DNA of 52,479 nt from a virus (Duplodnaviria; Caudoviricetes): IMG/VR virus record IMGVR_UViG_3300030685_000004, positions 1-52,479 of that record, one strand, 5' to 3'. Position numbers and translations under genes: made by a program. A model generated the notes under the pieces. It saw nothing but the letters and a program-made list of their open reading frames with translations, searched no databases and was not told the DNA's origin. Of this stretch, positions 128 to 39,744 are shown in pieces. Numbering within the stretch: position 1 is the first letter of the stretch; the number at the start of each line of letters is the position of its first letter.

Positions 128-636
128 CGACTCTAGCAAATAAGATTTCAAAGTGGCTTCATTCTGGTTCAGGATATGCCCGACTTGAGGATTCATATGA
201 ACCTGATCATTACAAGTTAGCAACCTACTCAGAAGATGGATCTATATCGAACATACTTCAACAGGCAGGTAGACTCACAATAAACTTCAACCGTAAACCT
301 CAAAGATTTTTAAAGACGGGGGATACAAAGAGTATAATAACAATACCAACTACTTTAGTTAACCCAACTGACCAATCAGCATTACCGATAATAACAGTAA
401 AGGGTTCAGGTGCTGGAGTACTACATGTTGGAAGTTATGTTGTAACAATATCTGACATTATAAATTATATTGATCTAAACAGTGATATAGAAGAAGCATA
501 TAATGGTATCATTAACTTAAATGGATATATTACATTAAGCAATGGATTCCCTAAACTAATTCCTGGGGATAATCTAATCTCCTTTTCAGGGGGAATAACA
601 TCAGTCGAAGTACTGCCTAAATGGTGGACGATATGA
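1..636 (+). CDS. Distal tail (Dit-like) protein, 3' part; gene starts at 52275 and wraps the origin (~237 aa)
   Basis: Frame 1 is open from nt 1 (PERNYEITPIPGRNGEL...) to TGA at 634-636 (...VEVLPKWWTI). It sits between the tape measure and Tal genes. Confidence 0.85.
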   Translation, partial: PERNYEITPIPGRNGELTLDRGGYKNVNRSYQIAIGAVGGDFTTLANKISKWLHSGSGYARLEDSYEPDHYKLATYSEDGSISNILQQAGRLTINFNRKPQRFLKTGDTKSIITIPTTLVNPTDQSALPIITVKGSGAGVLHVGSYVVTISDIINYIDLNSDIEEAYNGIINLNGYITLSNGFPKLIPGDNLISFSGGITSVEVLPKWWTI

Positions 637-2288: not shown

Positions 2289-2300
2289 GGGGGATTATTA

Positions 2301-3575: not shown

Positions 3576-3599
3576 ACATTTTAGGACTGAGGTGAGGAT

Positions 3600-8308: not shown

Positions 8309-8336
8309 GGCAAAAACCTTGAAAGGGGAGAAGGAA

Positions 8337-8627
8337 ATGAAAAGATTTCGTAAAGATAAAAGGAATCCAATAACAAAGGAGGTAGATGAGATAATTAGTA
8401 TTATGGCTACTACAGATAGAGGTTCCGATAAATATAAGCAATTAGCTGGTAATTTAGAAACATTAATGAAGGTAAGGTCTAGTTATAAAGACCCATCCAG
8501 AGTTGATGTAAACACATTAGCAATAGTTGTAGGTAATTTATTGGGAATCGCTATTATAGTGGGATATGAGCAAAGTCATATCATCACCACCAAAGCATTA
8601 GGATTTGTTTTAAAGGGACGTGTGTAA
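8337..8627 (+). CDS. Early cassette membrane protein
   Basis: RBS TTGAAAGGGGAGA; C-terminal TM segment; terminator overlaps the stop codon. Confidence 0.75.
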   Translation: MKRFRKDKRNPITKEVDEIISIMATTDRGSDKYKQLAGNLETLMKVRSSYKDPSRVDVNTLAIVVGNLLGIAIIVGYEQSHIITTKALGFVLKGRV

Positions 8628-8647
8628 TACATGTCCTTCTCTTTTTT
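8613..8647 (+). terminator. Intrinsic terminator
   Basis: AAGGGACGTGT-gtaat-ACATGTCCTT followed by a T-tract. Confidence 0.75.
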
Positions 8648-8652
8648 GCCTA

Positions 8653-8680
8653 TCGCACAAATTACACAGCCTATAATGAA
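8653..8680 (+). promoter_or_regulatory. Phage promoter repeat P2
   Basis: TCGCAC-aaatt-ACAC-agcc-TATAAT-GAA. Confidence 0.85.
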
Positions 8681-8797
8681 GAGATGATTATATGCGAACA
8701 GTATAATCTGAGAAAGGTGTTGTCCTTGAAGGTTTAGCTGATGGCTATCGAAATACGGAACAACTTAATGGTTAATGGTTGAGCCGCCTATCTCTTC
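8678..8797 (+). ncRNA. Structured ~120-nt small RNA of unknown family (sRNA-A)
   Basis: Has its own promoter and no RBS/ORF. 5' GAAGAGATG pairs with 3' TATCTCTTC, internal hairpins are present, and a T10 tract follows. Confidence 0.65.
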
Positions 8798-8810
8798 TTT
8801 TTTTTTTGCC

Positions 8811-8838
8811 TCGCACAATTTACACACCCTATAATGAA
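8811..8838 (+). promoter_or_regulatory. Phage promoter repeat P3
   Basis: TCGCAC-aattt-ACAC-accc-TATAAT-GAA. Confidence 0.85.
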
Positions 8839-8867
8839 AGATATTTCAGAAAGGGGATTAGAATATT

Positions 8868-8948
8868 ATGATAACAATGTTAGTAATAGCGTTAATAATA
8901 AAAATTCTTAAAAGAAAATCAGGACAAAAGGTAGTAGAGGCAATTTAA
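8868..8948 (+). CDS. 26-aa hydrophobic/basic microprotein (MITMLVIALIIKILKRKSGQKVVEAI)
   Basis: Own promoter, RBS GAAAGGGG, and a terminator hairpin (GTAGTAGAGG...CTTCTACTAT-T tract) over the stop codon. Confidence 0.65.
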   Translation: MITMLVIALIIKILKRKSGQKVVEAI

Positions 8949-8969
8949 ACTTCTACTATTTTTTTTGCC

Positions 8970-8997
8970 TCGCATAGATTACATATAGTATAATGAA
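8970..8997 (+). promoter_or_regulatory. Phage promoter repeat P4
   Basis: TCGCAT-agatt-ACAT-atag-TATAAT-GAA. Confidence 0.85.
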
Positions 8998-9024
8998 AGA
9001 AATTGTGAAAGGGGATTAAAAATC

Positions 9025-9246
9025 ATGGAGAAAAAAGCAATGGTAGTTTTAGGATTATTTAGTTTAGGAGGTTATGTATTAGGACTCTCTATAGATAGAC
9101 GCATTATGAAAAAGAGACATGCAAAAATCGAAAGGGAATTCTTCGCATTGATTACTAAAGACAAAGAATTAATAGAATTATCAAAACGAATCAATATGAA
9201 AAATAAAATTCTTCACAGTAAAATTAGAGAGTTTGGGTGCTTATAA
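9025..9246 (+). CDS. Early cassette protein, N-terminal TM helix
   Basis: Promoter, GAAAGGGG RBS, terminator. Confidence 0.7.
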   Translation: MEKKAMVVLGLFSLGGYVLGLSIDRRIMKKRHAKIEREFFALITKDKELIELSKRINMKNKILHSKIREFGCL

Positions 9247-9268
9247 AGCATCCTTTCTTTTTTGCCTA

Positions 9269-9296
9269 TCGCGAAAATTACATATATTACAATGAA
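9269..9296 (+). promoter_or_regulatory. Phage promoter repeat P5
   Basis: TCGCGA-aaatt-ACAT-atat-TACAAT-GAA. Confidence 0.8.
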
Positions 9297-9325
9297 AGAA
9301 TAATAAATTTAAGGAGTGATAAATT

Positions 9326-9550
9326 ATGTTTAAAAAAGAAATGGTTGTTGAGACGACATTAGAACATGGTAATAATCTAGAGGTTCAGGCTTTAGCAAGT
9401 ATATATACAGTAAGTACTGTTCATATAAATGCTAGGAATGACGATCAGGTTATTGTCAGATTCATAATAAAGAAATCAAAAATCAAAGATTTTAAAGCTA
9501 ATTTAAGATTGTTAAATGGATTAGGAATTAAAGGAAGAATAGTAGAGTAA
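9326..9550 (+). CDS. Early cassette hypothetical protein
   Basis: Promoter, RBS AAGGAG, terminator over the stop codon. Confidence 0.7.
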   Translation: MFKKEMVVETTLEHGNNLEVQALASIYTVSTVHINARNDDQVIVRFIIKKSKIKDFKANLRLLNGLGIKGRIVE

Positions 9551-17350: not shown

Positions 17351-17500
17351 TAATGACAAAGATAGGTAAGTATAAATTGAGAAAATATAGTGTACTAGAT
17401 ATAGGTTGGTTCTGGTTGCGTTGCACAATAGCAGCGGTAGCGGTTTGTGTAGTTATATATGGACTTGGTGATATGATAGAGATGGTTGCTCGTTTCTAAC

Positions 17501-17528
17501 TCGCGAAGATTACACAGTATATAATGAA
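17501..17528 (+). promoter_or_regulatory. Phage promoter repeat P14
   Basis: TCGCGA-agatt-ACAC-agta-TATAAT-GAA. Confidence 0.85.
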
Positions 17529-17554
17529 GATAAAACTTGAAAGGTGGAGTTAAA

Positions 17555-17809
17555 ATGATGAACAGAGAACAGGTTAAATTTGTAGGAGAATTAGTAATTT
17601 CAGTATGTGTTAATACAGTAATAGGTAATGTTATAAAGGGGACTACCCCTGAGGATATAGGTAAGCTCGAAGGAGCTGCTGTTAGACTTGGGAAGGCAGT
17701 ACTCAGTATAGCAATAGCTAATATAGTAGTTGACAATATTGAGAAGAGATTCGATGCAAGGATGGCAAAAATCGATGAACAGAATAAAAACGAAACAGTT
17801 AAAGCGTAA
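17555..17809 (+). CDS. Early cassette hydrophobic-hairpin protein
   Basis: Own promoter and terminator. Confidence 0.7.
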   Translation: MMNREQVKFVGELVISVCVNTVIGNVIKGTTPEDIGKLEGAAVRLGKAVLSIAIANIVVDNIEKRFDARMAKIDEQNKNETVKA

Positions 17810-17813
17810 TCAG

Positions 17814-17857
17814 AAAGGAGTAGGTACTATTAACATAGTACTTATTCTTTTCGTTTT
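17814..17857 (+). terminator. Intrinsic terminator
   Basis: AAAGGAGTAGGTACTAT-taac-ATAGTACTTATTCTTTT followed by a T-tract. Confidence 0.75.
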
Positions 17858-17874
17858 TGAAAGGGGCGATAAAA

Positions 17875-18123
17875 GTGAGTGGAGATACTGGCAAATCAAT
17901 AATGGCCTTTGTAGAAATACAAGAAAATGGTATAATAAGAAAAGACAATATTGTAATAGGTCACTTAACCGACTATGCAAAGGATAATTTCGAAAAAACA
18001 TATATAGAGATGGTTAATAAAAGTATAGACCTTGCTATGAAACAAATAAAAGATCAAACTAAGACTATATATATGGGAGCCACTTCTACAATTAATACTG
18101 GTTTTAAAAGGGGAGATAAATAA
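17875..18123 (+). CDS. Hypothetical protein (GTG start)
   Basis: RBS TTGAAAGGGG. Confidence 0.55.
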   Translation: MSGDTGKSIMAFVEIQENGIIRKDNIVIGHLTDYAKDNFEKTYIEMVNKSIDLAMKQIKDQTKTIYMGATSTINTGFKRGDK

Positions 18124-18266
18124 TGGTATTATTAACAGTTTTTATAGTTGGATGGATAGGTGGGTCTTTAATGGTGTGCTTAGGTCAAGGTAGACCTAGA
18201 AAATATAAAGATGGAATAATGTTCTTTGATGACGAACTTAATCTGGATGAAAGGGAGAGATAAATA

Positions 18267-18455
18267 GTGGACTATATAACCTGCACGATTCCAAATCAAG
18301 AATATACTGGGATATTTATAATTGATAGTCATTTGGTTAAACACAAGTTAATTGAAGCAGGCTTTTATTTAAATAGACCCATGACTCATATATATGACAC
18401 GGTGAATGATACAGTTGTATTCAAACAAGAAAAGGGAGAGATAAATAATGGATAA
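18267..18455 (+). CDS. Hypothetical protein
   Basis: RBS GAAAGGGAGAG; GTG start. Confidence 0.55.
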   Translation: MDYITCTIPNQEYTGIFIIDSHLVKHKLIEAGFYLNRPMTHIYDTVNDTVVFKQEKGEINNG

Positions 18456-19080
18456 AAGAGATTACGTAAATATTAATGATTTTCCAAGCAATTCAAAAGA
18501 GGCACAGAAAGATGAAACTATAGAAAGAAAGGTTGTTAGTAAAGTAACTACTGGTAAAGTTCTAAAAAGGAAAAAATCATTTGGTAAGAAGGTTGTAGAG
18601 ACTTTTGTTGGAGAAGAGATATTTGATGTTAAGACTTATATTCTTCAGGATGTATTAGTGCCAGCATTTAAGAACACGGTAGTAGAGATGTTCAGAGATA
18701 TTCCAGAGTTACTCTTATTTGGAGAAAGACGAAATTCTAGGTCATCATCGTCAAGAGGTATGGGTCGTATTGCTTATGACAGTATGTCTAGTAGAAGAGA
18801 TGTCAATACAAGAGAAATATCTAATAGAGACAGAGCTACTCATAACTTTGATGAGATAGTTCTTACCACTAGAAACGATGCGGTTGAGGTTCTTGGTAGC
18901 CTAATGGATTTGATACAGGATTATGGACAGGCAACAGTGGCAGACTTGTATGACTTTGTAGGAGTGACCGGAGAATACACAGATAGGAAATATGGTTGGT
19001 TAGATTTATCAAGAGCAGGCTTAAGACCAGTCAGAGGTGGATTCATGTTGGATTTACCTAGACCTATATTAGTAGATTAG
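18448..19080 (+). CDS. Conserved phage protein with ATVADLY...YGW domain
   Basis: C-terminal 'TR.DA.EVL..L...I..YG.ATVADLYD..G...D.KYGW..L...LDLPRP'. Confidence 0.75.
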   Translation: MDKRDYVNINDFPSNSKEAQKDETIERKVVSKVTTGKVLKRKKSFGKKVVETFVGEEIFDVKTYILQDVLVPAFKNTVVEMFRDIPELLLFGERRNSRSSSSRGMGRIAYDSMSSRRDVNTREISNRDRATHNFDEIVLTTRNDAVEVLGSLMDLIQDYGQATVADLYDFVGVTGEYTDRKYGWLDLSRAGLRPVRGGFMLDLPRPILVD

Positions 19081-19088
19081 GTGTTATT

Positions 19089-19268
19089 ATGACTATAGTT
19101 GAAATGCGTAGATATGTCGCTAACAAATATTATAGTGACACTTGGAAAAACAAAGTTAAAATGATGAATGACAACCAGGTACTAGCAATATATACCAAAA
19201 TGAAACTAGATGATGATAATGCATTCTATATTATAAAGGATCGAGACCGTTATTTGTATGGCCAATAA
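19089..19268 (+). CDS. 59-aa protein, paralog of 20662-20796
   Basis: 'MR..V...Y...W..KVK.M.D.QVLAIY'. Confidence 0.65.
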   Translation: MTIVEMRRYVANKYYSDTWKNKVKMMNDNQVLAIYTKMKLDDDNAFYIIKDRDRYLYGQ

Positions 19269-19285
19269 TGAAAGGGGATATTATA

Positions 19286-19978
19286 ATGGAAATAAAGTTT
19301 GAAACAAGAGAAGAAGCAGGAAGGGTATTAGCAAAACTTGATGCAAAAATACTTTTGGATGGAATTGCTACTTTAAAAGATTATCATGATTTTAGGTCAA
19401 TGTTATCTATTCTTGGAGATAGTCAGTGTGGTTGGAGAGGACTTCAAACTGCCATAATTCAAAGAGACTACATTGAAAATGCTTGGTTATTAATATTACC
19501 AGACCCAATACACTTAGGGGGAGATTATAAGATAAACCCACCAAATAGAACATTTAATAGTAAAGAATGTGCAGATTTGGTACTTCTAGCTATGACCGAG
19601 AATATAGAATATCAAGGAAAGACTAGTCTTGTTGATTACTACAAAATTCTTGGTTGTGAGGATTATCAGGAGTCAGATGATGAATGGGGTTGGACTGATC
19701 TAAGAGAGGCAAGAATAAGAGAAAATACAATTGCTGGCTTTACTTTATTGTTACCCCCAATAGTACGCTTACATGGTCCACAAAACGTAAAAGAAGAGGA
19801 ATATGAGTATCCTAAACTTGAAGGCCTAGCTGTAGAATTTAATAACACCGGATTAGAACCTATATTGTTTGTATGTAAACCCACTAATAAGGGTCTCGTA
19901 TATGTGTCCAGATGCAAAGGAGTAGAAGCAATTAAGATATACAACCTACTGCTTGGTAAGAAAGAAGGAGCGAAATAA
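19286..19978 (+). CDS. Protein with two ATVADLY/GW-family domains
   Basis: Two repeats of F.(T/S)(R/K)E.A..VL...GW..L..A.I...L.LP. Confidence 0.7.
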   Translation: MEIKFETREEAGRVLAKLDAKILLDGIATLKDYHDFRSMLSILGDSQCGWRGLQTAIIQRDYIENAWLLILPDPIHLGGDYKINPPNRTFNSKECADLVLLAMTENIEYQGKTSLVDYYKILGCEDYQESDDEWGWTDLREARIRENTIAGFTLLLPPIVRLHGPQNVKEEEYEYPKLEGLAVEFNNTGLEPILFVCKPTNKGLVYVSRCKGVEAIKIYNLLLGKKEGAK

Positions 19979-19979
19979 T

Positions 19980-20153
19980 ATGGTGACTGATTTATATATT
20001 GTAGGTTTTGACTTATCTGAACAAGATGACATGACTGCATCTATAGGAATACTAGGAACTGGAGTTATGAATGTTGAAATAAAGAAAACTATTCATGGAG
20101 AAAAAGCAATCGAACTATATGAAAAATTGAAAGGGGAGATAAATAATGAATAA
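19980..20153 (+). CDS. Small hypothetical protein
   Basis: RBS AAGGAG; 'G..AI.(I/L)Y..L' C-terminus like that of the upstream gene. Confidence 0.55.
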   Translation: MVTDLYIVGFDLSEQDDMTASIGILGTGVMNVEIKKTIHGEKAIELYEKLKGEINNE

Positions 20154-20541
20154 AATATTATTAGTTGTTGGCGGATTTGTTGGGGGTTATTGTGTTCATA
20201 GAAAGATAATGACAATTGCACTTACCGAGATGTTAGAGAAGGATTATCCTAAACCAAGATATACAAACTATCGTGATATAATAATAGGTACGAGAGAAGA
20301 TGCAAGAGAAGTATTAGGTTTACTTCAGAATTTCATAGATAATTATGGTGTAGTTACCGTTGCTGATTTATTAGATTCAGTAGGAGAAACAAGTTCTATT
20401 ATAGATGTTAAATATGGTTGGGTAACATCATTCGGTGCATATGTGGCAAAAGATAAAAATGGTTGGACACTTAAATTACCTAGACCAAGGTTGTTAGATA
20501 ATGACACAAGTTATGTTCCATACTCGAAAAGGAGTAAATAA
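20146..20541 (+). CDS. ATVADLY/GW-family protein with N-terminal TM
   Basis: 'TREDAREVL...NYGVVTVADLLD..G...KYGW...LKLPRP'. Confidence 0.75.
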   Translation: MNKILLVVGGFVGGYCVHRKIMTIALTEMLEKDYPKPRYTNYRDIIIGTREDAREVLGLLQNFIDNYGVVTVADLLDSVGETSSIIDVKYGWVTSFGAYVAKDKNGWTLKLPRPRLLDNDTSYVPYSKRSK

Positions 20542-20661
20542 TATGAATAGATATAAGCAGTTTGAAGAGAAATGCAAAGTGTGTCCTTGGAATACTATGT
20601 GTAGTGTGGAGTTGACTCAAGTGTTAGGATGTATGTCTGATAACGAAAAGGAGAATGACAA

Positions 20662-20796
20662 ATGTCAACCGATCAAATGAGAAATGCTGTAGCCACTGTA
20701 TATGCTGGTAGAAAATGGGCACTTAAAGTCAAGGTTATGAGTGATCATCAGGTACTTGCCATATATAAAAGATTTGTAAATTCCAAATTATTATAA
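20662..20796 (+). CDS. 44-aa protein, paralog of 19089-19268
   Basis: MSTDQMRNAVATVYAGRKWALKVKVMSDHQVLAIYKRF. Confidence 0.65.
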   Translation: MSTDQMRNAVATVYAGRKWALKVKVMSDHQVLAIYKRFVNSKLL

Positions 20797-20816
20797 AAAG
20801 AAAAGGGGAGAGGCCC

Positions 20817-21281
20817 ATGAAAATTTTAACATTTACAGATAGAGAATCTGCTGAAGCAATTTTAAAGAGTCTTGATGTCTGTATACAATGTAAAGGAGTT
20901 GCCACAGTTGCAGACTTATATTACTATATAAATACTCCAACTTATTGTATGATGTATCCGGAATCACCTGACGATACTAAAATGGGATGGACTACTATAG
21001 ATACAGCTAAGTTATCTAGAGATTTATACCACAATACTTATCGGTTAATGGTACCAGATCCTATAGCGTTAGATAAGCAATCTGGTCCAGTCGAACCAGT
21101 AGCATCAACAATTATTCTCAGTGAGGATTATATGATTGAATATGACCTTAAGGACGATGGTCAAGCCGCATTAACTGTAAAGGTTAAAAATGGACGTAAT
21201 GAAAGAGTTATAAATGTACTTTTCGACGATATTGCAAAACTAGTTTATAAAATATTAATAATTGAAAGGGGTAATAAATAA
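20817..21281 (+). CDS. ATVADLY/GW-family protein
   Basis: 'FTDRESAEAIL...GVATVADLY...MGW...L.VPDP'. Confidence 0.7.
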   Translation: MKILTFTDRESAEAILKSLDVCIQCKGVATVADLYYYINTPTYCMMYPESPDDTKMGWTTIDTAKLSRDLYHNTYRLMVPDPIALDKQSGPVEPVASTIILSEDYMIEYDLKDDGQAALTVKVKNGRNERVINVLFDDIAKLVYKILIIERGNK

Positions 21282-22186
21282 TGAATAAATTAACTACAAT
21301 CAAAAATGTAGTAACATCCAAAGCAGGAAGAGGTCTGTTACAGATTAGAAAGGTTAGTCCAGAAATACTGTTAGTTGCTGGAGTTGCTGGAGTAATAACC
21401 AGTACAGTGCTAGCATGCAGAGCCACACTTAAAGTAGAAGAGATTGTTGGGGATGCGTTAATAGATATTAACAAAATAGAACAGGTTGCTGCAGAAAACA
21501 ACGAAACAAAGTATTCAAAGAAGGATGCTGCAAAAGATTTGTTCATAGTAAGGGTTCAGACAGGAGCGAAGATTGCTAAGTTATATGGTCCATCAATAGC
21601 AGTAGGTGTTGTATCACTAGCATGCTTACTTGGTTCACACAATATTCTACAGAAGAGAAATGTTGCTCTTATGTCAGCATACAAAGCTCTTGAGACTGGT
21701 TTCAACGAATATAGGAAAAGAGTTGTTGATGAGTTAGGTGTTGATAAGGATACTGAGTATAGATATGGAATATCTAAAGTTAAAGTAACTACTATTGACG
21801 AGAATGGTGTTGAAACTTCAAAAATGGTTAACAACATTAACATGACTGATAGTATATATGCAAGAGAATTCTCAGAAAAGACAGCAAAAGAATGGTCACC
21901 AAATCCTGAATACAATCTTATGACTCTTAAATGTCGTCAGAACTATGCCAACGATTTACTGAATGCTAGAGGACATCTATTCTTAAATGAAGTATACGAC
22001 ATGCTTGGTATCAAAAGGTCTGATGCTGGTGCTGTTGTAGGATGGGTTAAGGATAATGTTGATGGAGATGGTTTTGTAGATTTCGGGATTTACAAAGATT
22101 TAAATTGTCAGGAATATGTTAATGAATATGGAACTAGCTGGTTGTTAGACTTCAATGTTGATGGTGTCATATTTGATTTGATTTAA
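21281..22186 (+). CDS. DUF6353-like protein
   Basis: 'SPEILLVAGVAGV..STVLACRATLK', 'GHLFLNEVYDMLG...VVGW', 'LLDFNVDG'. Confidence 0.75.
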   Translation: MNKLTTIKNVVTSKAGRGLLQIRKVSPEILLVAGVAGVITSTVLACRATLKVEEIVGDALIDINKIEQVAAENNETKYSKKDAAKDLFIVRVQTGAKIAKLYGPSIAVGVVSLACLLGSHNILQKRNVALMSAYKALETGFNEYRKRVVDELGVDKDTEYRYGISKVKVTTIDENGVETSKMVNNINMTDSIYAREFSEKTAKEWSPNPEYNLMTLKCRQNYANDLLNARGHLFLNEVYDMLGIKRSDAGAVVGWVKDNVDGDGFVDFGIYKDLNCQEYVNEYGTSWLLDFNVDGVIFDLI

Positions 22187-22313
22187 TGAAAGGGGTAGAA
22201 AAAAATGAAAAAATACGGATGTATGGCAATGTTGTTTGACCTATTTATGATATTTATAACTGGTGGTCTATGGCTCATATGGATTCTAGTTAGGTTCTTG
22301 AGGACTCACTAAA

Positions 22314-22556
22314 ATGAGCACGAAGTATATTCCAATGGAGTATGATAATCTTGGAGGGTATGTACGACAATTGTTCTATCTACTAGAAGACAATGTGTTT
22401 GTTAATGAATTTGGTATAGTTGTATTTAATATCTTTGATTACATTACTCCAAACGAGTTAATGTTGTTTAAAGCAACAAAAGAATATACACAGATACCAT
22501 CAAGAAACGGGTTTATGATAGAACTATTATGCCAAGAGTTAAATTTTGATTATTGA
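22314..22556 (+). CDS. Hypothetical protein
   Basis: RBS GAGGA; open frame. Confidence 0.55.
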   Translation: MSTKYIPMEYDNLGGYVRQLFYLLEDNVFVNEFGIVVFNIFDYITPNELMLFKATKEYTQIPSRNGFMIELLCQELNFDY

Positions 22557-22570
22557 AAGGGGAGAATGAT

Positions 22571-23233
22571 ATGTATAAAAATATAGGATTAGTATTATTA
22601 GGGGCCTTAATCGGGTCCCTTATTACTTACAAATATCTTACAGTGAACTATGAAGAAGTTGAAGATGACAAGAAATCAGCTGAAAAATTAGCAGCGGAAC
22701 TTGCAGAATATAGAAAACCGAAAGAGCATCTATCAATTGGAGGTTATAATATACCAACACCTGGCGAAGTTATAGAGTTAATTGATAAGGCATCTTTACA
22801 CCCAGGTATGGACTCTGAAGAAAGAACCAGGACCAGAGAAGATATAGAAGAAGAACGAATCGAATATGCCAAAGAGGTACTTGGATATACTGGTGATGAA
22901 GATGAGGAAATTGAATTCATACCTAATCCAAGGCAGACAGAAATACAGGATAAACCCTTTGTAATTACTGTAGACTTATTTGCCGAGGACTGTGTCAACT
23001 ATGATAAACTCACAGTCTATTATTATGAGGTTGATAATGTTTTAGTAGATGAGGGTGATGATGCACAGATGGATATTGAAACATCTATAGGTTATGAGGC
23101 TTTAGATGAATTCGGATATGGCAATCCTAACCCTGACTTAGTGTATGTACGTAATGATCATTTAGAGATTGATTATGAGGTTATACGACTTGGTGATTCT
23201 TATGAAGAGAGCGTGATGGAGTATGAAAAGTAG
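22571..23233 (+). CDS. Acidic protein with N-terminal membrane anchor
   Basis: N-terminal TM; C-terminal 'P.VI....F...L.YY..D.VL.D...VYVRN..L.IDYEV'. Confidence 0.75.
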   Translation: MYKNIGLVLLGALIGSLITYKYLTVNYEEVEDDKKSAEKLAAELAEYRKPKEHLSIGGYNIPTPGEVIELIDKASLHPGMDSEERTRTREDIEEERIEYAKEVLGYTGDEDEEIEFIPNPRQTEIQDKPFVITVDLFAEDCVNYDKLTVYYYEVDNVLVDEGDDAQMDIETSIGYEALDEFGYGNPNPDLVYVRNDHLEIDYEVIRLGDSYEESVMEYEK

Positions 23234-30102: not shown

Positions 30103-30622
30103 TGCATCCAAATATCATTGGGTGAACTATGATGAAGAGAAACTTGCATCTACTTACTCTAAATTTTTAGCAACTATGCAGGGAACTAGATTGCATGAGT
30201 TTGCTAGTGAGTGTATAAAATTAGGAATCAAACTTCCTAAATCAAAGAAGACAATGAACCTTTATGTAAATGATGCTATAGGTTATAAGATGGCAACAGA
30301 ACAACCTTTGTATTATTCAGAGAATTGTTTTGGCACAGCGGATGCCATATCCTATAGACAAAACTTGCTTAGAATTCATGATTTAAAAACTGGAATTACT
30401 CCAGCATCTATGAGACAACTAGAAGTATATACTGCTTTATTCTGTTTAGAATACAAGATAGACCCAACTTCTATAGATACAGAATTAAGATTATACCAAA
30501 TGGATGAGGTTCTAATTCATACCCCACCAACAGAAGATATCCTACATATCATGGACAAAATTATAGTATTCGACCAAAAGATTACTAAATTAAAGATTGG
30601 AGGAGAATATGATTATCTATAA
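30053..30622 (+). CDS. PD-(D/E)xK exonuclease-like protein (Cas4/DUF2800-like)
   Basis: 'LSAS', 'GTRLH', 'FGTADAI', 'IHDLKTG', 'QLEVY'. Confidence 0.8.
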   Translation: MNFNTHFELAGQHAFLSASKYHWVNYDEEKLASTYSKFLATMQGTRLHEFASECIKLGIKLPKSKKTMNLYVNDAIGYKMATEQPLYYSENCFGTADAISYRQNLLRIHDLKTGITPASMRQLEVYTALFCLEYKIDPTSIDTELRLYQMDEVLIHTPPTEDILHIMDKIIVFDQKITKLKIGGEYDYL

Positions 30623-33521
30623 TGAACTAAGTCATATTGGCACTGGCACCTCTGGTCGATATCCAAAAGGGTCAGGACAAATGCCACAAAGAAGTAAAAC
30701 ACTACTAACTCAAATAGAAGAATTGAAAAAACAAGGTATGACTGATAATGAAATAGCAACAGGATTAGGCATGAACTCTAACCAATATAGACAAAGAAGA
30801 TCAATTGCCAACGCTGACCAGAAAATAGCAGATGCTCATAAAGCTATGATGTTAGAACAAAAGGGATATAGTAATGTTAAGATTGGTGAAATCATGGGTA
30901 GAAATGAATCATCAATTCGAGATTTATTAAAACCAGGTGTTTTAGAAAAAGCCAGTACAATTAGAAACATATCTAATATGTTGAAAGATGAACTAGACAC
31001 AAAACCTGGTTATGTTGATATTGGTGTTCAAACAGAACAATATATTGGTATTAAAAGAACTCAACTTAAAACAGCTGTTAGATTACTAGAAGAAGAAGGG
31101 TATGTAACACATGAAATTCCAATTGACCAACAAGGTACTGGTAAAATAACAACTATGTTAGTAGTTGCTAAACCAGGAACTACATGGGCAGAAGTTATGA
31201 ACAACAAAGATAAAATTCACATGATTAATGATAAATATTCTGAAGATGGTGGTCGAACTATTCTTGGAATTGAGACCCCTAATAGTATAAGTTCCAAACG
31301 AGTTAAAATAAACTATGCGGATGATGGTAGTGGCGGAAAAGAAATGGATGGTGTTATCCAATTAAGAATGGGTGTTCCTGAATTATCTTTAGGGAGTAAG
31401 CGATATGCTCAAGTTCGTATAGCTGTAGATGATACTCATTACTTAAAAGGTATGGCTATATATACTGATAAACTCCCTCCAGGAATTGATGTAATGTATA
31501 ACTCCAATAAATCAAAAACTACACCAGCTAGTAAAGTGTTTAAATCAATGGCCGATGAGAAAACTGGATTAATAGATCCTGATAACCCATTTGGTGCAAC
31601 CATTAGACAAAAACATTTTGTAACTGAAGAAGGTAAAAAAACACCAGGTTCAGGTAAAATGTTAGAATTAAAGAATGAAGGTAAATCTTATTCTGAAATA
31701 GCTAAAATAATGAAAATACCAGAAGATTTGGTTAAAAAAAGTGTAAAGGTAAGTGCCTTAAATATAGTTAATGAAGAAGGCGATTGGGAAAAATGGTCTA
31801 AAAATATATCATCTCAGATGTTATCTAAACAAACCCCAGATCTTGCCAAACAACAACTCGGATTAGCTTATGCCTCTAAGAAAAAAGAATTTGATGAAAT
31901 TATGACTCTGACTAATCCAACTGTTAGAAAAAAACTACTTGATGGCTTTTCTGATGATTGTGATTCAGCAGCTGTACATCTAAAAGCAGCGGCTCTACCA
32001 AGACAAGGGTCAAGAGTTATATTACCAATTCCAAGTATGAAGGATACAGAGATATATGCTCCAACCTATCGAAATGGGGAAAAAGTAGTTCTTGTTAGAT
32101 ATCCACATGGTGGTATATTTGAAATACCAGAACTAACAGTTAACAATCAGCAACCAATTGCTAAAAAACTTCATGGAAAACTAATTGATGCTGTTGGTAT
32201 ACATCCTAAAGTAGCTGAAAGATTGTCAGGAGCAGATTTTGATGGTGATACTGTTTTAGTTATTCCTAATAGAGGAAGAAATGGTAAACCATTAATAAGA
32301 ACTGAACCAGCTCTTAAACAACTTGAGGATTTCGATCCAAAAGCATTATACAAATTACCTGACTCAGCACCAAAAATGTCATCTCGTACTAAAGGTATTG
32401 AAATGGGAAATGTTTCTAATCTTATTACAGATATGACTATTAAGGGTGCAAAAAATGAGGAAATAGTTAGAGCCGTTAAACATAGCATGGTTGTAATCGA
32501 TGCTGAAAAACATCATTTAGATTATAAACAATCAGCTATTGATAATGGTATTGCTGCTTTAAAAAAGACTTATCAAGGTGGTGCAATAAGAGGAGCTTCT
32601 ACCTTAATATCCAAAGCCTCTTCTGATTATAGAGTTGATGATCGAGTAATTGGAACCGGTAATGGTATTATTAATCCCAAAACAGGTAAAGAAAAGAGAA
32701 TATATATTGACCCTGTTACAGGAAATAAATTATATACAAATACAGGAAAGTCCTATATCAAGAAAACTGTAACTATAACCGATCCAGAAACAGGAAAGAA
32801 GAAAATACTTAGTGTATATAATGCTCTTGTTAAAAAGGCATTGTTAGAGAATCCTAATCTGCCTATTAAAGAAACAGTTGTCACGAAAACAATCAAGTCT
32901 ACTAAGATGGCAGAAGCAAAAGATGCATTTGAGTTATCATCTGGAACTACTATGGAAACGGTATATGCTGAGCATGCAAACAAATTAAAAGCATTAGCAA
33001 ATGAGTCAAGGAAAGCATACATCAGTACCCCACCTTCTTTGTACTCCGCCTCTGCAGCAAAGACCTATGCTAAAGAAGTAGCTACACTTAATGCTAAACT
33101 AAACGTAGCGTTAAAGAATGCTCCTCTAGAGAGGAATGCAAATAGAATAGCAGGACTCAATATAGCAGCCAAGAAGGCAGCCAACCCTGACATGGAACTC
33201 AGTGAGATTAAAAAGTACAAGTATCAAGCCTTAGCAGAAGCAAGAGCTAGAATGGGTGCGAAAAAAGATCCTGTCGAGATAACAAATAAAGAATGGGAAG
33301 CTATACAAGCAGGTGCTGTTAGTAATAACACATTAAGTCAGATACTTAACAATGCTAGCCCTGATTTAGTTAAGCAATTAGCAACACCTAGAGTTAAACC
33401 TACAGTGACAACAGCACAAGAATCAAGGATGAAAAACTTAATTAAGAGTGGCCATACTCAAGCAGAGATAGCCGATGAATTAGGTGTATCAACTTCTACA
33501 GTATCATCATACATGAACTAA
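30609..33521 (+). CDS. Single-subunit two-barrel (double-psi beta-barrel) RNA polymerase with four HTH modules
   Basis: LSGADFDGD (ADFDGD at nt 32232-32249), VLVRYP, MDGVI, YAQVRI...LKGM and VIDAEK match motifs of the cellular RdRP/YonO-like clade; four HTH segments. Confidence 0.85.
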   Translation: MIIYNELSHIGTGTSGRYPKGSGQMPQRSKTLLTQIEELKKQGMTDNEIATGLGMNSNQYRQRRSIANADQKIADAHKAMMLEQKGYSNVKIGEIMGRNESSIRDLLKPGVLEKASTIRNISNMLKDELDTKPGYVDIGVQTEQYIGIKRTQLKTAVRLLEEEGYVTHEIPIDQQGTGKITTMLVVAKPGTTWAEVMNNKDKIHMINDKYSEDGGRTILGIETPNSISSKRVKINYADDGSGGKEMDGVIQLRMGVPELSLGSKRYAQVRIAVDDTHYLKGMAIYTDKLPPGIDVMYNSNKSKTTPASKVFKSMADEKTGLIDPDNPFGATIRQKHFVTEEGKKTPGSGKMLELKNEGKSYSEIAKIMKIPEDLVKKSVKVSALNIVNEEGDWEKWSKNISSQMLSKQTPDLAKQQLGLAYASKKKEFDEIMTLTNPTVRKKLLDGFSDDCDSAAVHLKAAALPRQGSRVILPIPSMKDTEIYAPTYRNGEKVVLVRYPHGGIFEIPELTVNNQQPIAKKLHGKLIDAVGIHPKVAERLSGADFDGDTVLVIPNRGRNGKPLIRTEPALKQLEDFDPKALYKLPDSAPKMSSRTKGIEMGNVSNLITDMTIKGAKNEEIVRAVKHSMVVIDAEKHHLDYKQSAIDNGIAALKKTYQGGAIRGASTLISKASSDYRVDDRVIGTGNGIINPKTGKEKRIYIDPVTGNKLYTNTGKSYIKKTVTITDPETGKKKILSVYNALVKKALLENPNLPIKETVVTKTIKSTKMAEAKDAFELSSGTTMETVYAEHANKLKALANESRKAYISTPPSLYSASAAKTYAKEVATLNAKLNVALKNAPLERNANRIAGLNIAAKKAANPDMELSEIKKYKYQALAEARARMGAKKDPVEITNKEWEAIQAGAVSNNTLSQILNNASPDLVKQLATPRVKPTVTTAQESRMKNLIKSGHTQAEIADELGVSTSTVSSYMN

Positions 33522-33537
33522 GAAAGGAGTAATCTTT

Positions 33538-33780
33538 ATGAAACAATCAATGTTAACTACAACCGATAATCCATTCGATCCATTCGATGATTTCGATGAA
33601 TGGTATGCCTTTGATGAATCAAAAGGTTATCATTCTCTTAGTTACTTATCTAGAATAGTAAGAACAAGTGATGAACTAAGTGAACTCGATCAGCATTTAG
33701 CAATTGAATCTGCTATTGATGACATAATTAAATTAAATCTTTTAGGAATCTATACGCGAGCAACTAAAGATGTAGAATAA
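33538..33780 (+). CDS. Conserved acidic small protein
   Basis: 'MLTTTDNPFDPFDDFDEW..FD..KGY'; RBS GAAAGGAG. Confidence 0.75.
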   Translation: MKQSMLTTTDNPFDPFDDFDEWYAFDESKGYHSLSYLSRIVRTSDELSELDQHLAIESAIDDIIKLNLLGIYTRATKDVE

Positions 33781-33860
33781 ACCAATAGTGGGGGGTCCCT
33801 CGCAAATCCTACCCCCCCTCCATATCGCGTTCGTCCTAAAAAAAGCTCCGGTGGGACATT

Positions 33861-33988
33861 TTCCTAGACCTTTTCAAGTATGGCGACGGCTTCTTTAGTC
33901 AAAAGTGGTTCATGGTGGCCATTCTCTCCCCTTTCAAGAGATGTTGATTGTCCAAAGTCGGGTCGCCATACCTGAAAGTGTCTAGGAA
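33861..33988 (+). ncRNA. Long-hairpin RNA presenting an anti-RBS loop (CCCCUUUCA)
   Basis: 27-bp outer stem with 2 mismatches (TTCCTAGAC.../...GTCTAGGAA), further inner helices, and an apical TCTCT-CCCCTTTCA-AGAGA hairpin in a non-coding gap. Confidence 0.7.
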
Positions 33989-34033
33989 CACATTAAAACT
34001 TACATAAAAGTAATAGAAAGGAGTGAACAACTG

Positions 34034-34366
34034 ATGGCCGTGTCCAAGAAAGATGATTCACCGAAACGCCAGCCTCCTGCTACTACACCAGAAGCAAGAG
34101 AAAGTCAAATGATAGCCTTTGCTGTAGACTTGGCAGAGAAACAACTTCTCAAAGGAACGGCATCGTCACAAGTTATAACTCACTTCTTAAAACTTGGTTC
34201 GACCAAAGAAAGAATTGAGAAAGAGATTCTTATGAAACAAAAAGAACTCATACAAGCCAAGACAGATGCTATTCAATCAGCAAAGAAGGTAGAAGAATTA
34301 TATGCAAATGCCCTTAATGCAATGAAATCATACAGTGGAAAAGGAGGTAATGACGATGGAGACTAG
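34034..34366 (+). CDS. Putative terminase small subunit
   Basis: Helical 110-aa protein heading the packaging module; assignment mainly positional. Confidence 0.55.
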   Translation: MAVSKKDDSPKRQPPATTPEARESQMIAFAVDLAEKQLLKGTASSQVITHFLKLGSTKERIEKEILMKQKELIQAKTDAIQSAKKVEELYANALNAMKSYSGKGGNDDGD

Positions 34367-35678
34367 TATAGACAATCCTTCTTTAGATGAACTTGCACAT
34401 CATGGTATTATGGGAATGCATTGGGGACATCATAAAGGAGAAATATCTGCATCCATCGAAAAAGCTCATGCAAATCTAAAGAGTCAAGAAAAGATTCTTA
34501 GAAAAGAGACTGAAAGGTATAATAGAGCAGGATCAACGTATGCAAGTGCATCTGATCAGAAAAGATTTGACTCAGCAATGAGAGAGTATGATTATGCTCG
34601 AACAGATTTAAAAAGTGCTAAGATTTTAGATAAAATAAATTCAAGTCCTAAATCTAAATCCCAACTTAAAGTTGAATCTAAGTATAAAGAGAAAGGTATG
34701 TCTAACGACGAAGCATCAGTGGCGGCCTATAAGCATATAAAAACTAGGAATTTATTGATAGCCGTTGGAGCCACAACAGTTGTAGCCGGAGGTGCATATC
34801 TAGCTTACAAGTATCATGATGATAGAGTCGATAAGATAATAAAAAGTGGTACCAAGTTATCGAACATATCAGCGGAGAATACCAAGGATATTCGTGATGC
34901 ATTCTACTCAACAAGAGTTGGTGAAAAGGGAAAGATACTGGATAAAATAGATAACTCTAAGTATAAAGGTATCTTTGCCAGAAATATATCTGGTTTTGGC
35001 AAAACTCCATATGATAAAGAAATTCATGTTTTAAAAGACATTAAGATGGTATCGCCAGAGAATAGTAGAAAAACAATAGCCTCACTTATTAAGACTGACC
35101 CAGATTACCATGAAAAACTAAAGTCTTACATCTTATACCAGACTGGTGATTATGTTGATAGTTGGCCTGGACTTGATAAAGTTAGAAAGAGAGCTGTTGA
35201 CGATATAGTTGATGGTAAAGTCACAAAAGATGTTTATAAAATAGTTAATATGGCAATGGCTGATCATAGACCAAATGCGGAATCAATAACCGAACCTTTT
35301 AAGAAAGCATTAAGTAAAGATGGTTATAATGCTATAAAAGATATAACCGATAACCAATTAAGTGGATTCCGAACCTTCAATCCAATTATAACATTCAACT
35401 CTAAAGGTTTGGTGGATGTAGTAGGGGTTAAAGAAGTAACAGAAGATATAATTAAAAAATCTGAGAAATTAGCATACGGGCATTTACATACGGTAGAAAA
35501 TGTTAAAGCAGGAGGTCAACTTGCGGGCATAATATTAGGGTTTACTGGTATCAATACAGGAGTCAAAGCACTAGGTAAACAATCACTGACTAGGGAAACA
35601 CTTAACTATCGTAAAGATAATCCTAATACCAAGTTATCAAACACTGAAATAACGCGTATGTTGGAAAGGAGTAGATAG
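34356..35678 (+). CDS. HxGxxGMxWG-tagged protein (440 aa) with central TM and unknown C-terminal domain
   Basis: 'DELAHHGIMGMHWG' at the N-terminus. Confidence 0.75.
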   Translation: METSIDNPSLDELAHHGIMGMHWGHHKGEISASIEKAHANLKSQEKILRKETERYNRAGSTYASASDQKRFDSAMREYDYARTDLKSAKILDKINSSPKSKSQLKVESKYKEKGMSNDEASVAAYKHIKTRNLLIAVGATTVVAGGAYLAYKYHDDRVDKIIKSGTKLSNISAENTKDIRDAFYSTRVGEKGKILDKIDNSKYKGIFARNISGFGKTPYDKEIHVLKDIKMVSPENSRKTIASLIKTDPDYHEKLKSYILYQTGDYVDSWPGLDKVRKRAVDDIVDGKVTKDVYKIVNMAMADHRPNAESITEPFKKALSKDGYNAIKDITDNQLSGFRTFNPIITFNSKGLVDVVGVKEVTEDIIKKSEKLAYGHLHTVENVKAGGQLAGIILGFTGINTGVKALGKQSLTRETLNYRKDNPNTKLSNTEITRMLERSR

Positions 35679-36628: not shown

Positions 36629-37489
36629 ATGAGAGATAATGAGTATCTAGAGCATCATGGTGTTATGGGAATGAAGTGGGGACATACAAGCGGGAGTATT
36701 GAAAAAACTGCATATTCAGTAGGAGCAAAAATTAATCCTCGAGAACTAAAATACAAAGTTCATAAGATGACAACTAAAGTAAATGACGATACAAAATTAT
36801 TAGCAGATCTTACTAAAGCATCTAGTAAAGAATCCGGTGTTCTTCCAAATAATAAAAATGCACTTCTAGCAATAGAAAAAGTAGGTATCAAAACTCATGC
36901 TAAAACAGTGTATGATAATTTGGATAAACAAGATATTCTTAATTTAAAGACTTATACTGACTCGGCTAGGTATTCTAGAAGTGTTAATAATTATCTAGCA
37001 ATAGGAACACCTAAAGAGATTGCAGCAGAAGCAGCAAAGTTAAAACAAACACTTGGAAAGAATGCAATAAACGATGTTACAGTGTATCGAAGTTGTAATT
37101 TTAAATTTTCCATAAATGGCGTAGCGAAAAAACTAGATACGATGTCTGAAGAAGAACTACAAAATAACATTTCATTACTTTCTAAAAACTTCAGTGGAAA
37201 ATCGCTAAAAGAAAATAGAGTTTTCTCGACAAGTACATCTCCTTTATTTGCAATAGATACCTGGAGAGCAGTTAATCCAACAGCAGCTTCAACCTACAAT
37301 ACATATATGATTATTAATTGTAAGGGAACACCTGGAGTCTTAGCCGATGGTAAAACAAATGATGGAAAATCTCTTGTTAATACAAGAAGTAATCAAGAGG
37401 GCATATTAGCCCCAAATAAGTTAACTTATAAGAAATTAGAGTTTGATAGTGAACGCAAAATGTTTGCTATAACAGTAGATGCCACTTAA
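36629..37489 (+). CDS. HxGxxGMKWG-tagged ADP-ribosyltransferase (VIP2/C3-like, R-S-E class)
   Basis: 'LKTYT...Y..VNNYL', 'VYRS', 'FSTSTS', 'NQEGIL'. Confidence 0.75.
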   Translation: MRDNEYLEHHGVMGMKWGHTSGSIEKTAYSVGAKINPRELKYKVHKMTTKVNDDTKLLADLTKASSKESGVLPNNKNALLAIEKVGIKTHAKTVYDNLDKQDILNLKTYTDSARYSRSVNNYLAIGTPKEIAAEAAKLKQTLGKNAINDVTVYRSCNFKFSINGVAKKLDTMSEEELQNNISLLSKNFSGKSLKENRVFSTSTSPLFAIDTWRAVNPTAASTYNTYMIINCKGTPGVLADGKTNDGKSLVNTRSNQEGILAPNKLTYKKLEFDSERKMFAITVDAT

Positions 37490-37998: not shown

Positions 37999-39744
37999 AT
38001 GGGACTATCAAATACAGCAACACCAAAATATTATGGAGAATTTCGTGATGCAGTTATTCGTGGAGAGATACCAGTCTGTAAAGAAATCTCTATGGAGATG
38101 AATCGTATAGACGAACTAATAAGTAATCCTGGAGTCTACTATGATAGTGGTGTTGTAGATGGATTTGTTAAGTATTGTGAAAAAGAACTTACTCTAACTG
38201 ATGGTGCTGATTTGGTACTACTAGATTCATTCAAACTATGGGCTGAAGCAGTATTTGGATGGTACTATTTTGTTGAACGAAGTATCTATGAACCATCACC
38301 AGACAACCATGGTGGTAAGTATGTACGTAAGATGATTAAGAAGCGATTGATTAACAAACAGTATTTGATTGTTGGCCGAGGTGCTGCAAAATCATTATAT
38401 GATTCATGTATTCAATCTTACTTTCATAATGTTGATACTACAACCACTCATCAGATTACTACAGCTCCAACCATGAAGCAGGCTGATGAAGTTATGTCTC
38501 CTATACGAACTGCCATTACAAGATCAAGAGGTCCTTTGTTTCAATTCTTAACCGAGGGTTCTCTACAGAACACAACAGGCTCTAGAGCCAACAGGATTAA
38601 GTTAGCATCCACTAAGAAGGGTGTTGAGAACTTCCTTACAGGCTCACTAATAGAAGTACGACCTATGAGCATTGATAAACTACAAGGACTACGACCAAAG
38701 ATAGCAACTGTTGATGAGTGGCTCTCTGGTGACATTCGAGAGGATGTTGTTGGTGCCATTGAGCAGGGTGCATCTAAACTTGATGACTACTTAATTGTAG
38801 CAACGAGTTCAGAAGGTACTGTTCGAAACGGAAGTGGAGATACAATCAAAATGGAGCTAATGGACATACTTAGAGGTGACTACATAAATCCACATGTTTC
38901 TATCTGGTGGTATAAACTCGATGATGTCAAAGAAATTAATGATCCATCAACCTGGCAGAAGGCAAATCCTAATCTTGGCAAGACTGTTACATATGAAGTC
39001 TATCAATTAGACGTTGAACGAGCAGAGAAAGCACCTGCTTCTAGGAATGATATCTTAGCAAAGAGGTTTGGTCTCCCAATGGAAGGCTATACCTACTTCT
39101 TTACTTATGAAGAAACTTTGCCACATAAGAAACGTAATTTCTGGAAGATGGTTTGTTCTATGGGAGCTGATATGTCTCAGGGAGATGACTTCTGTGCATT
39201 CACATTCTTGTTTCCGTTAGCTGGTGGTAAGTTTGGGATTAAGACTAGATGCTATATCACGTCATTAACTCTTATGAAGCTTCCAGGAGCGATGAGAAGT
39301 AAATACAACCAGTTCTTAGATGAAGGAAGTTTGATGGTCTTAGAAGGGACCGTACTAGACATGATGGAGGTCTATGAAGACTTAGATCAGTTTGTTATTG
39401 ATGAAGATTATGATGTGCGAAGTTTTGGATTTGACCCTTACAATGCTAAAGAATTTGTTACTCGATGGGAAACAGAGAATGGTCCTTACGGAATTGAGAA
39501 AGTAATCCAGGGTGCCAAGACTGAATCAGTACCATTGGGTGAACTTAAGAATTTAGCAGAAGAACGAATGCTTATATTTGATCAGGAACTAATGTCATTT
39601 ACAATGGGTAACTGTGTTACTCTAGAAGATACAAATGGTAATCGTAAATTGCTGAAAAAACGATATGAGCAAAAGATTGATAGTGTCTCTGCTCTTATGG
39701 ATGCCTATATTGCTTATAAAGTAAATAAAGATGCCTTTGAATAA
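37999..39744 (+). CDS. terL: Terminase large subunit
   Basis: Walker A-like VGRGAAKS, Walker B TVDE, W.KANPNLG, nuclease GADMS..DD, FDPYNA, KIDSVSALMDA. Confidence 0.93.
   Translation: MGLSNTATPKYYGEFRDAVIRGEIPVCKEISMEMNRIDELISNPGVYYDSGVVDGFVKYCEKELTLTDGADLVLLDSFKLWAEAVFGWYYFVERSIYEPSPDNHGGKYVRKMIKKRLINKQYLIVGRGAAKSLYDSCIQSYFHNVDTTTTHQITTAPTMKQADEVMSPIRTAITRSRGPLFQFLTEGSLQNTTGSRANRIKLASTKKGVENFLTGSLIEVRPMSIDKLQGLRPKIATVDEWLSGDIREDVVGAIEQGASKLDDYLIVATSSEGTVRNGSGDTIKMELMDILRGDYINPHVSIWWYKLDDVKEINDPSTWQKANPNLGKTVTYEVYQLDVERAEKAPASRNDILAKRFGLPMEGYTYFFTYEETLPHKKRNFWKMVCSMGADMSQGDDFCAFTFLFPLAGGKFGIKTRCYITSLTLMKLPGAMRSKYNQFLDEGSLMVLEGTVLDMMEVYEDLDQFVIDEDYDVRSFGFDPYNAKEFVTRWETENGPYGIEKVIQGAKTESVPLGELKNLAEERMLIFDQELMSFTMGNCVTLEDTNGNRKLLKKRYEQKIDSVSALMDAYIAYKVNKDAFE

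Follow-up and report, generated by a model that had tools for sequence, protein, structure and literature searches.

The stretch of DNA analyzed here (the window) is a complete virus record of 52,479 bp, IMG/VR record IMGVR_UViG_3300030685_000004, which the assembler closed as a circle. Between two of its genes lies a long hairpin (33861-33988) whose tip is the antisense of ribosome-binding sites (RBSs) used elsewhere in the same genome, and the question raised by this locus is whether the hairpin is an RNA that acts on those sites or an element that serves its own leader, DNA packaging or transcription. The computational evidence set out below leads us to lean, if not heavily, towards the first answer, namely that this is a + strand RNA in the leader of the late genes whose tip, which resembles the anti-Shine-Dalgarno (anti-SD) sequence of 16S rRNA, would pair with a class of Shine-Dalgarno (SD) sequences on the phage's own mRNAs and lower their translation. 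The initial annotation had placed the hairpin in the gap before the packaging genes, a location that has to be corrected: the gap corresponds to the joined cohesive ends of the genome, flanked by the last gene of the right end (stop at 33780) and the first gene of the left end (start at 34034, hereafter gene 1). The hairpin belongs to the leader of this first late gene, and the large terminase (37999-39744) is encoded ~4 kb further on.

Folding of the + strand from 33850 to 34000 gave a minimum free energy of -52.7 kcal/mol (z -3.95), and none of 200 shuffled sequences was equally stable. The hairpin ends in a 9-nt loop, CCCCUUUCA (33928-33936), with CCCCUUUC as its core. Both this folding result and the conservation across the family described below support the fold-back and the tip reported in the initial annotation. 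The accompanying argument that G:U pairs within the window favor the + strand failed, since the - strand of the same region folds just as well (-54.0 kcal/mol, z -5.67); because the fold of the window alone does not favor the + strand, the strand was settled only by comparison across the family. All called genes, and indeed every large open reading frame (ORF) of the window, are on the + strand. An intrinsic terminator, that is, a G+C-rich stem followed by a run of U, was also considered and ruled out, as no + strand terminator-like site was found in 33000-34600; the 3′ flank of the hairpin reads ACACAUUAAAAC.

The loop proved to be exactly antisense to the (TT)GAAAGGGG(AGA) RBSs of early genes. 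When up to two mismatches were allowed, TTGAAAGGGGAGAGA, the reverse complement of the tip, gave seven + strand matches, all within 8319-22567, plus the loop itself, where 0.21 were expected. Exact antisense runs extend to 14 nt at 8318, 14471 and 15984 and to 13 nt at 20127 and 22553, and each of these five runs stops 4-6 nt ahead of a start codon, which confirms the complementarity at all five sites named in the initial annotation. Copies of GAAAGGGG itself number 20 on the + strand, 19 of them between 8321 and 28045 and one at 46984, and the only copy on the - strand is the loop (expected over both strands, 1.47). By our gene calls, GAAAGGGG stands ahead of 16 of the 46 early genes (8.3-23.9 kb), 1 of the 8 middle genes and 1 of the 31 late genes, whereas GGAGG stands ahead of 3, 3 and 15 of the same genes, respectively; early genes thus favor the GGGG class of RBS and late genes GGAGG, as had been proposed. 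We considered an altered anti-SD in the host as the source of the GGGG class and dropped it, as the late genes carry perfect GGAGGTG sites, which argues that the host anti-SD is canonical.

Predicted pairing energies separated the same groups of genes. The loop paired at -12 kcal/mol or below with 19 of 46 early, 1 of 8 middle and 1 of 31 late translation initiation regions (TIRs; Mann-Whitney p = 0.002), the ranking of early above late genes that the initial annotation had anticipated, and the apical 19-mer paired at -15 kcal/mol or below with 24 of the 85 TIRs in the window. When all 256 all-pyrimidine 8-mers were compared, the real loop came first both for early binding and for the contrast between early and late genes. 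The same relation between loop and early genes was obtained in a sister genome (G001), and the 16S tail prefers the late genes of the window, opposite to the loop. The GGGG class is specific to this lineage: GAAAGGGG stands ahead of 18 of the 85 window genes and 15 of the 71 in G001, but of 0-1 genes in G002-G005, the loops of which are CUCCUUUC or CUCCCUUU. Two paralogous early genes (11654-12430 and 21281-22186, both phrog_2152) both carry TTGAAAGGGG-class RBSs and are both predicted targets.

For comparison across the family, we kept 80 of the 567 confirmed viral loci with a gene 1 homolog, which gave 56 non-redundant leaders. The closest comparison is with a sister genotype (six contigs) in which the hairpin is identical at 127 of 128 positions and the flanking genes are ~81% identical. 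In one sequencing run (X21), the unitig containing the hairpin (33857-33990) had a depth of 33, compared with 4-9 in its flanks, and the sister T>C at 33951 was present; co-occurring strains evidently share the hairpin almost letter for letter. The contigs of four sequencing runs all break at 33961-33990 and display no molecule ends. The stems of distant relatives, 25-45 bp in length, are paired, yet they have no sequence in common with the stem of the window. In an alignment of the alignable subfamily (A1, 6 sequences), 93.8% of the cells were paired, and both sides had changed in 17 of 33 pairs, compared with a mean of 7.4 in shuffled alignments (0 of 500 shuffles reached 17) and with 2-4 when the partners were slid. 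We then compared the two kinds of mismatch that distinguish the strands in a strand-symmetric palindrome alignment of all 56 leaders, and counted 162 G·T against 52 A·C within stems at positions with Watson-Crick pairs on both sides, and 285 against 105 overall, an excess that base composition does not predict by our own estimate from skews. Because in-stem G·T outnumber A·C, the conserved structure is most likely a + strand RNA, and the compensatory changes, together with the tolerance of G·U but not of A·C, are what a structured RNA of that strand would generically display.

The tip motif is far more constant than the stem that carries it... CTCCTTTC was found exactly in 49 of the 56 leaders, and the others had CTCCCTTT (3 leaders), CCCCTTTC (2, the window and its sister), CTCCCTTC (1) or a false match in the right-end C run (1). 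At 14 of the 80 loci, the motif was not found in the stretch examined, which was at most 420 nt long and, at 8 of these 14, shorter than 250 nt. Variant loops in further lineages include CUCCCUUC and CUCCCUUU; in an anchor-pattern scan for such variants, 2 of 81 among the listed matches examined were real leaders, and nearly all matches were due to chance. The isolated and lab-sequenced phages 1706, Gordon and Eevee each carry a version of the hairpin element; the Arthrobacter phage Gordon and the Curtobacterium phage Eevee both have CTCCTTTC as well. A CTCCTTTC-like motif was not found in Rima 1-1500 (L088) or Petito 1-3700 (L107), and the element is therefore not universal in the family. Two other + strand copies of CTCCTTTC in the window, at 11117 and 28739, were dropped, as both lie within local stems. 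The tip motif is predicted to be accessible, with a mean unpaired probability of 0.79 compared with 0.41 for the whole leader, and with values above 0.7 in 45 of the 56 leaders. Its core corresponds to 8 of the 9 nt of the 16S anti-SD. The discrimination between GGGG and GGAG sites attributed to the loop in the initial annotation would be peculiar to the lineage of the window; 49 of 56 relatives carry the canonical CUCCUUUC.

If the tip pairs with RBSs, it should fit those of its own genome better than those of others, and co-variation of this kind at the same locus in relatives had been put forward as a check. We paired the apical 19-mer of each of 14 lineages with its own TIR set and with those of the other lineages (G014 was left out because the L080 probe was not found in it, and G006, G016, G018, G019 and G020 because they were duplicates, incomplete or closely related). 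After removal of all TIRs within 400 nt of the loop, the diagonal sum was -258.0, compared with a permutation mean of -235.7 (sd 3.9), and 0 of 200,000 permutations reached it. The result held (p = 0.0001 or less, neighbor TIRs included) when the two strongest lineages, namely the window and G005, were omitted. Controls in which the flanks were shuffled, with composition and core kept, gave -0.62 +/- 0.22 kcal/mol compared with the observed -1.70 kcal/mol, a value reached by 0 of 32. The tip of G005 is perfectly antisense over 17 nt to one start site of that genome and over 14 nt to two others, and reading of the listed matches gave exact own-genome runs of 16 nt for G008 and 15 nt for G013. 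Across the 14 lineages, the loop and its flanks fit the RBSs of their own phage better than those of the others, and the CCCC/GGGG pair of the window is one such case. When the top ten predicted targets of each genome were pooled, 101 of 140 were non-late, whereas among all genes the share was 690 of 1112 (odds ratio 1.7, p = 0.005); the top ten of the window were all non-late.

Several observations weigh against a tip that pairs with early RBSs. The preference for early genes is strong in the window and only modest across the family: the core 9-mer alone gave no contrast between early and late genes in G002-G005 (p = 0.3-0.65), and the 19-mer showed no own-genome excess in G002, G003, G004, G012, G015 and G017. 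G003 is a counter-example to simple co-variation of the core, because its variant loop, CUCCCUUU, mismatches its own RBSs and ranks 150th of 256. The canonical CUCCUUUC loop would also pair with the SD sequences of the host and of late genes, and any specificity must consequently rest on the flanks. As for the strand, the - strand folds slightly better in the window alone, and comparison of whole-leader energies, in which the + strand was favored in 43 of 56 leaders by a mean of -9.8 kcal/mol, is a weak test, because coding controls were nearly as asymmetric (80 of 112, mean -5.7 kcal/mol). In addition, gene starts came from a simple home-made caller, and the boundary between late and early genes, 26.7 kb downstream of the loop, was chosen by eye.

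We also weighed whether the hairpin could act purely in cis, either as a 5′-terminal or RNase III-processed hairpin that stabilizes the late mRNA, or by pairing of the loop with the SD of gene 1 to set translation of that gene. The hairpin is always found in the leader of the first late gene, its stems of 25-45 bp have the size of RNase III substrates and fit the size rule for this enzyme, and gene 1 usually has GAAAGGAG(G), which is complementary to the loop core. However, the loops did not favor their own gene 1, with a TIR pairing energy of -8.75 kcal/mol compared with -8.16 kcal/mol for cross pairs (p = 0.34, median rank 22 of 56), and in the lineage of the window the loop went to CCCC while gene 1 kept GAAAGGAG. 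A stabilizer would, moreover, leave unexplained both the invariant anti-SD-like tip and flanks that track distant RBSs, and we regard an exclusively cis-acting element as unlikely.

Gene 1 itself has at least 8000 homologs, with matches in 241 named phage records that include Streptomyces, Arthrobacter, Gordonia, Curtobacterium, Lactococcus (1706) and Faecalibacterium (FP_oengus) phages. It is unusually conserved for a phage protein, with a mean column identity of 73% among 31 diverse homologs. The predicted model has two long helices and two tails, the N-terminal one basic and the C-terminal one acidic; no match was found in Pfam, among PDB sequences or by fold, its PHROG has no function assigned, and its Atlas clusters are unnamed. 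A locus search with a neighboring 447-aa protein found no relative. Two head-module proteins further downstream (34335-35678 and 36629-37489) share an N-terminal DUF7211 (PF23847) of ~20 residues on unrelated bodies.

The position of the hairpin next to the cohesive end raised the possibility of a signal in DNA. The lab-sequenced genomes of Rima, Gordon, 1706, Petito and Eevee all start at a motif homologous to 33835-33860, with CC-, an A/T run, -CCCCGG/CTCCGG-GGG- and a T run in common, and among the 37 IMG/VR contigs with an end no more than 800 nt from the gene 1 homolog, 16 start at this end-proximal motif. From these shared starts we place the physical left end of the genome at ~33835; the hairpin, in the leader of gene 1, would then begin ~26 nt inward of this end. 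The start base is the same in independent contigs and in the lab-sequenced genomes. The architecture of the cohesive-end (cos) site is family-wide, with a right end consisting of a G6-7 ... C6-7 inverted repeat followed by ATCGCG, and a nearly palindromic left end consisting of CC-, an A/T run, -CTCCGGNGGG- and a T run. The right-end element of the window is probably part of the cos site, and its fold energy by itself was not significant (z 0.10).

A packaging signal, whether a cosB-like terminase site or a cruciform beside the cohesive end, would agree with the ~26 nt between hairpin and inferred end in the window and in many relatives, and also with the guess, from its size, its position and the HNH endonuclease gene that follows it in named relatives, that gene 1 is a small terminase. 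The distance to the end is nevertheless variable: in Eevee the hairpin is directly upstream of the gene 1 homolog and 1.9 kb from the genome end, in Gordon, where it is likewise beside gene 1, the distance to the end is ~400 nt, and 1706 has the hairpin at its genome end with the gene 1 homolog 1.3 kb away, which argues for a leader element rather than a part of cos. Nor would duplex DNA or a cruciform formed by both strands give the threefold excess of G·T over A·C in the stem. The arms vary freely beside a gene 1 that is ~73% identical, and a DNA site offers no reason for a tip that tracks the phage's own RBSs. We therefore consider a packaging function very unlikely. In Eevee (L108), a tRNA-like T-arm (GGTTCGAATC-type) that is unannotated in the record is found at ~2040-2140, between the hairpin and the gene 1 homolog.

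Complementarity at the DNA level cannot separate an antisense RNA from a decoy on the opposite strand, and we accordingly considered molecular mimicry, in which the + strand tip would imitate the 3′ tail of 16S rRNA for a protein, or a - strand transcript would be an RBS decoy that titrates ribosomes or a regulator. The likeness of the core to the anti-SD, at 8 of 9 nt, and a - strand that folds as well as the + strand in the window would suit these possibilities. Neither agrees with the rest of the evidence, as all called genes are on the + strand, the wobble bias favors that strand, and an invariant mimic of the 16S tail needs neither co-varying flanks nor a CCCC variant. The SD-like motif on the - strand has no conserved start codon in relatives, as judged by eye, and a micro-ORF behind it, which has 7 codons in the window, was dropped for these reasons. 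Mimicry in either form appears highly improbable.

Phages of the 1706/Rima/Gordon-like family, to which this one belongs, encode a two-barrel RNA polymerase, and a phage group sharing this 'RdRP-like' polymerase is described in bioRxiv 10.1101/842583. Residues 939-974 of the polymerase match Pfam sigma-70 region 4 and helix-turn-helix (HTH) entries, and we presume that this enzyme transcribes the late operon headed by the hairpin. Its gene lies immediately upstream, and the hairpin, with its conserved tip motif, is situated where a late promoter would be expected; a promoter exposed in single-stranded form at the tip of a hairpin extruded from the DNA, as for the N4 virion RNA polymerase, was thus a further candidate. 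Promoter hairpins of the N4 type form on the template strand and have stems of 5-7 bp. Here such a hairpin would be on the - strand, whereas the wobble bias is that of the + strand; the stems of 25-45 bp far exceed those of N4, and a promoter would not co-vary with the flanks of RBSs. A promoter of this type seems extremely improbable. All four of these alternatives are weakened in that each misses at least one of three observations: the wobble bias, the variable distance to the end and the tracking of RBS flanks. The coordinates of the features discussed are given in Table 1. In the early region, there is also a tRNA call from Rfam only (11164-11237, not in ARAGORN) and one from ARAGORN only, with an undetermined anticodon (11552-11624, not in Rfam), and these may be two tRNA-like RNAs.

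Table 1. Coordinates of the hairpin, its predicted target sites and neighboring features in the window.
Feature	Position	Strand	Remarks
Long leader hairpin	33861..33988	+	~25-bp outer helix with two single mismatches, inner helix, two apical stem-loops
Apical stem-loop TCTCT-[CCCCTTTCA]-AGAGA	33923..33941	+	Second of two apical stem-loops; loop is the proposed RBS-pairing seed
Predicted target RBS, 14-nt exact antisense	8318..8331	+	Gene 8337-8627; duplex -27.0 kcal/mol
Predicted target RBS, 14-nt exact antisense	14471..14484	+	Gene 14489-14698; duplex -25.1 kcal/mol
Predicted target RBS, 14-nt exact antisense	15984..15997	+	Gene 16003-16329; duplex -25.9 kcal/mol
Predicted target RBS, 13-nt exact antisense	20127..20139	+	Gene 20146-20541; duplex -22.6 kcal/mol
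Predicted target RBS, 13-nt exact antisense	22553..22565	+	Gene 22571-23233; duplex -22.8 kcal/mol
Single-chain two-barrel RNA polymerase ('RdRP-like'), 970 aa, C-terminal HTH	30609..33521	+	phrog_4291, E = 0
Conserved right-end element, G6 ... C7 inverted repeat then ATCGCG	33790..33829		Kept upstream in relatives
Inferred left cohesive end and conserved end-proximal motif CCT-A7-GCTCCGGTGGG-ACATTTT	33835..33860		Homology to lab-sequenced genome starts
Gene 1, first late/left-end gene, 110 aa, phrog_4259	34034..34366	+	Shine-Dalgarno GAAAGGAG at 34016-34023

Several known RNAs resemble the hairpin in the way it would work. RsaE/RoxS and S. aureus RNAIII have hairpins with unpaired C/U-rich loops (CCCC, UCCC) that seed pairing with the SD sequences of several mRNAs, and the unpaired C-rich loop described here likewise pairs in silico with the G-rich SD sequences of several mRNAs. 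Those RNAs are chromosomal, stand-alone small RNAs (sRNAs) with a promoter and a terminator, whereas the hairpin is part of a leader and has a single apical motif and no terminator. In Cuckoo or CcsR-type RNAs of Alphaproteobacteria, hairpin loops with CCUCCUCCC copy the anti-SD and target RBSs; these RNAs differ from the hairpin in being host-encoded and in having several repeated hairpins with a different motif. With Lambda cosB, the hairpin shares only its place between the cohesive end and the first left-end gene, and differs in that its distance to the end is not conserved, its stem co-varies with a + strand wobble bias and its tip tracks RBSs.

The closest likeness is to the c4 antisense RNA (RF01695), which is also a phage-encoded, structured RNA from an operon leader with loops complementary to the RBS region of its target, as the 13-14-nt runs at five early RBSs are here. 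The c4 RNA of P1 and P7 is described in PMC12197685 as derived from a leader, with loops that pair around an RBS and so block translation, and with a specificity that co-varies between related phages and underlies their heteroimmunity. However, c4 is processed out of a transcript in which its single target lies downstream, and it serves to control immunity, whereas the predicted targets of the hairpin are ~10-25 distant genes that share a class of RBS and lie 11-26 kb upstream on the circular map; the hairpin also heads a late structural operon, in a phage in which no lysogeny genes were noted, and has an anti-SD-like core. Rfam 15 gave no match in the window at the gathering score, in 33700-34100 at E up to 10, or in the loci of 15 relatives, which places the hairpin in neither the c4 nor the C-rich-loop sRNA families, and sets it apart from the Cuckoo/CcsR type as well. 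A description of the element was not found in the literature searched (supplements aside), including the parts consulted of 10.1101/842583 and PMC12197685. By analogy, the element may work like c4 and the C-rich-loop sRNAs and differ from them in combining a single apical motif in a late leader with many distant predicted targets.

Taken as an RNA that pairs with the RBSs of its own phage, the hairpin would be a + strand element situated where the late (left-end) transcription unit begins, with a long stem that would present an unpaired, pyrimidine-rich tip with a core like the 16S anti-SD (CCCCUUUC here and CUCCUUUC in most relatives). This tip would seed pairing with the SD sequences, and their flanks, of a class of mRNAs from the same phage, in this case the (UU)GAAAGGGG(AGA) sites of ~20 early genes, and the pairing would spread into the short apical stem to give up to 14-15 bp. 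The duplex between tip and RBS would compete with the 30S subunit, and might perhaps also provide double-stranded substrates for RNase III, such that translation of the target genes would fall once late transcription yields the leader. The sequence comparisons show the fold and its conservation, the bias towards the + strand, the predicted accessibility of the loop, its complementarity to RBSs and its co-variation with them across lineages; we infer that the phage transcribes the RNA, does so late, and that the RNA pairs with its targets in vivo and thereby represses them. The hairpin RNA would then probably switch early-gene translation off.

Beyond this phage, we tentatively propose, and with somewhat more doubt than confidence, that a supercluster of Firmicutes and Actinobacteria phages may use a programmable anti-RBS RNA in the late leader, with an invariant ribosome-like core and co-evolving flanks, for translational shut-down of an early regulon. 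The idea is directly testable, because the isolates 1706, Gordon and Eevee each carry a version of the element, which is a candidate for a new RNA family absent from Rfam 15. If true, it would explain the extended, stereotyped RBS common to the early genes of these genomes, and it would constitute a temporal switch that works without a protein regulator and has been retuned from lineage to lineage, the GGGG/CCCC pair of the window being one such retuning. Temporal control in phages is known mainly as transcriptional, and a conserved antisense RNA with many targets, carried in the late leader, would extend it to translation.

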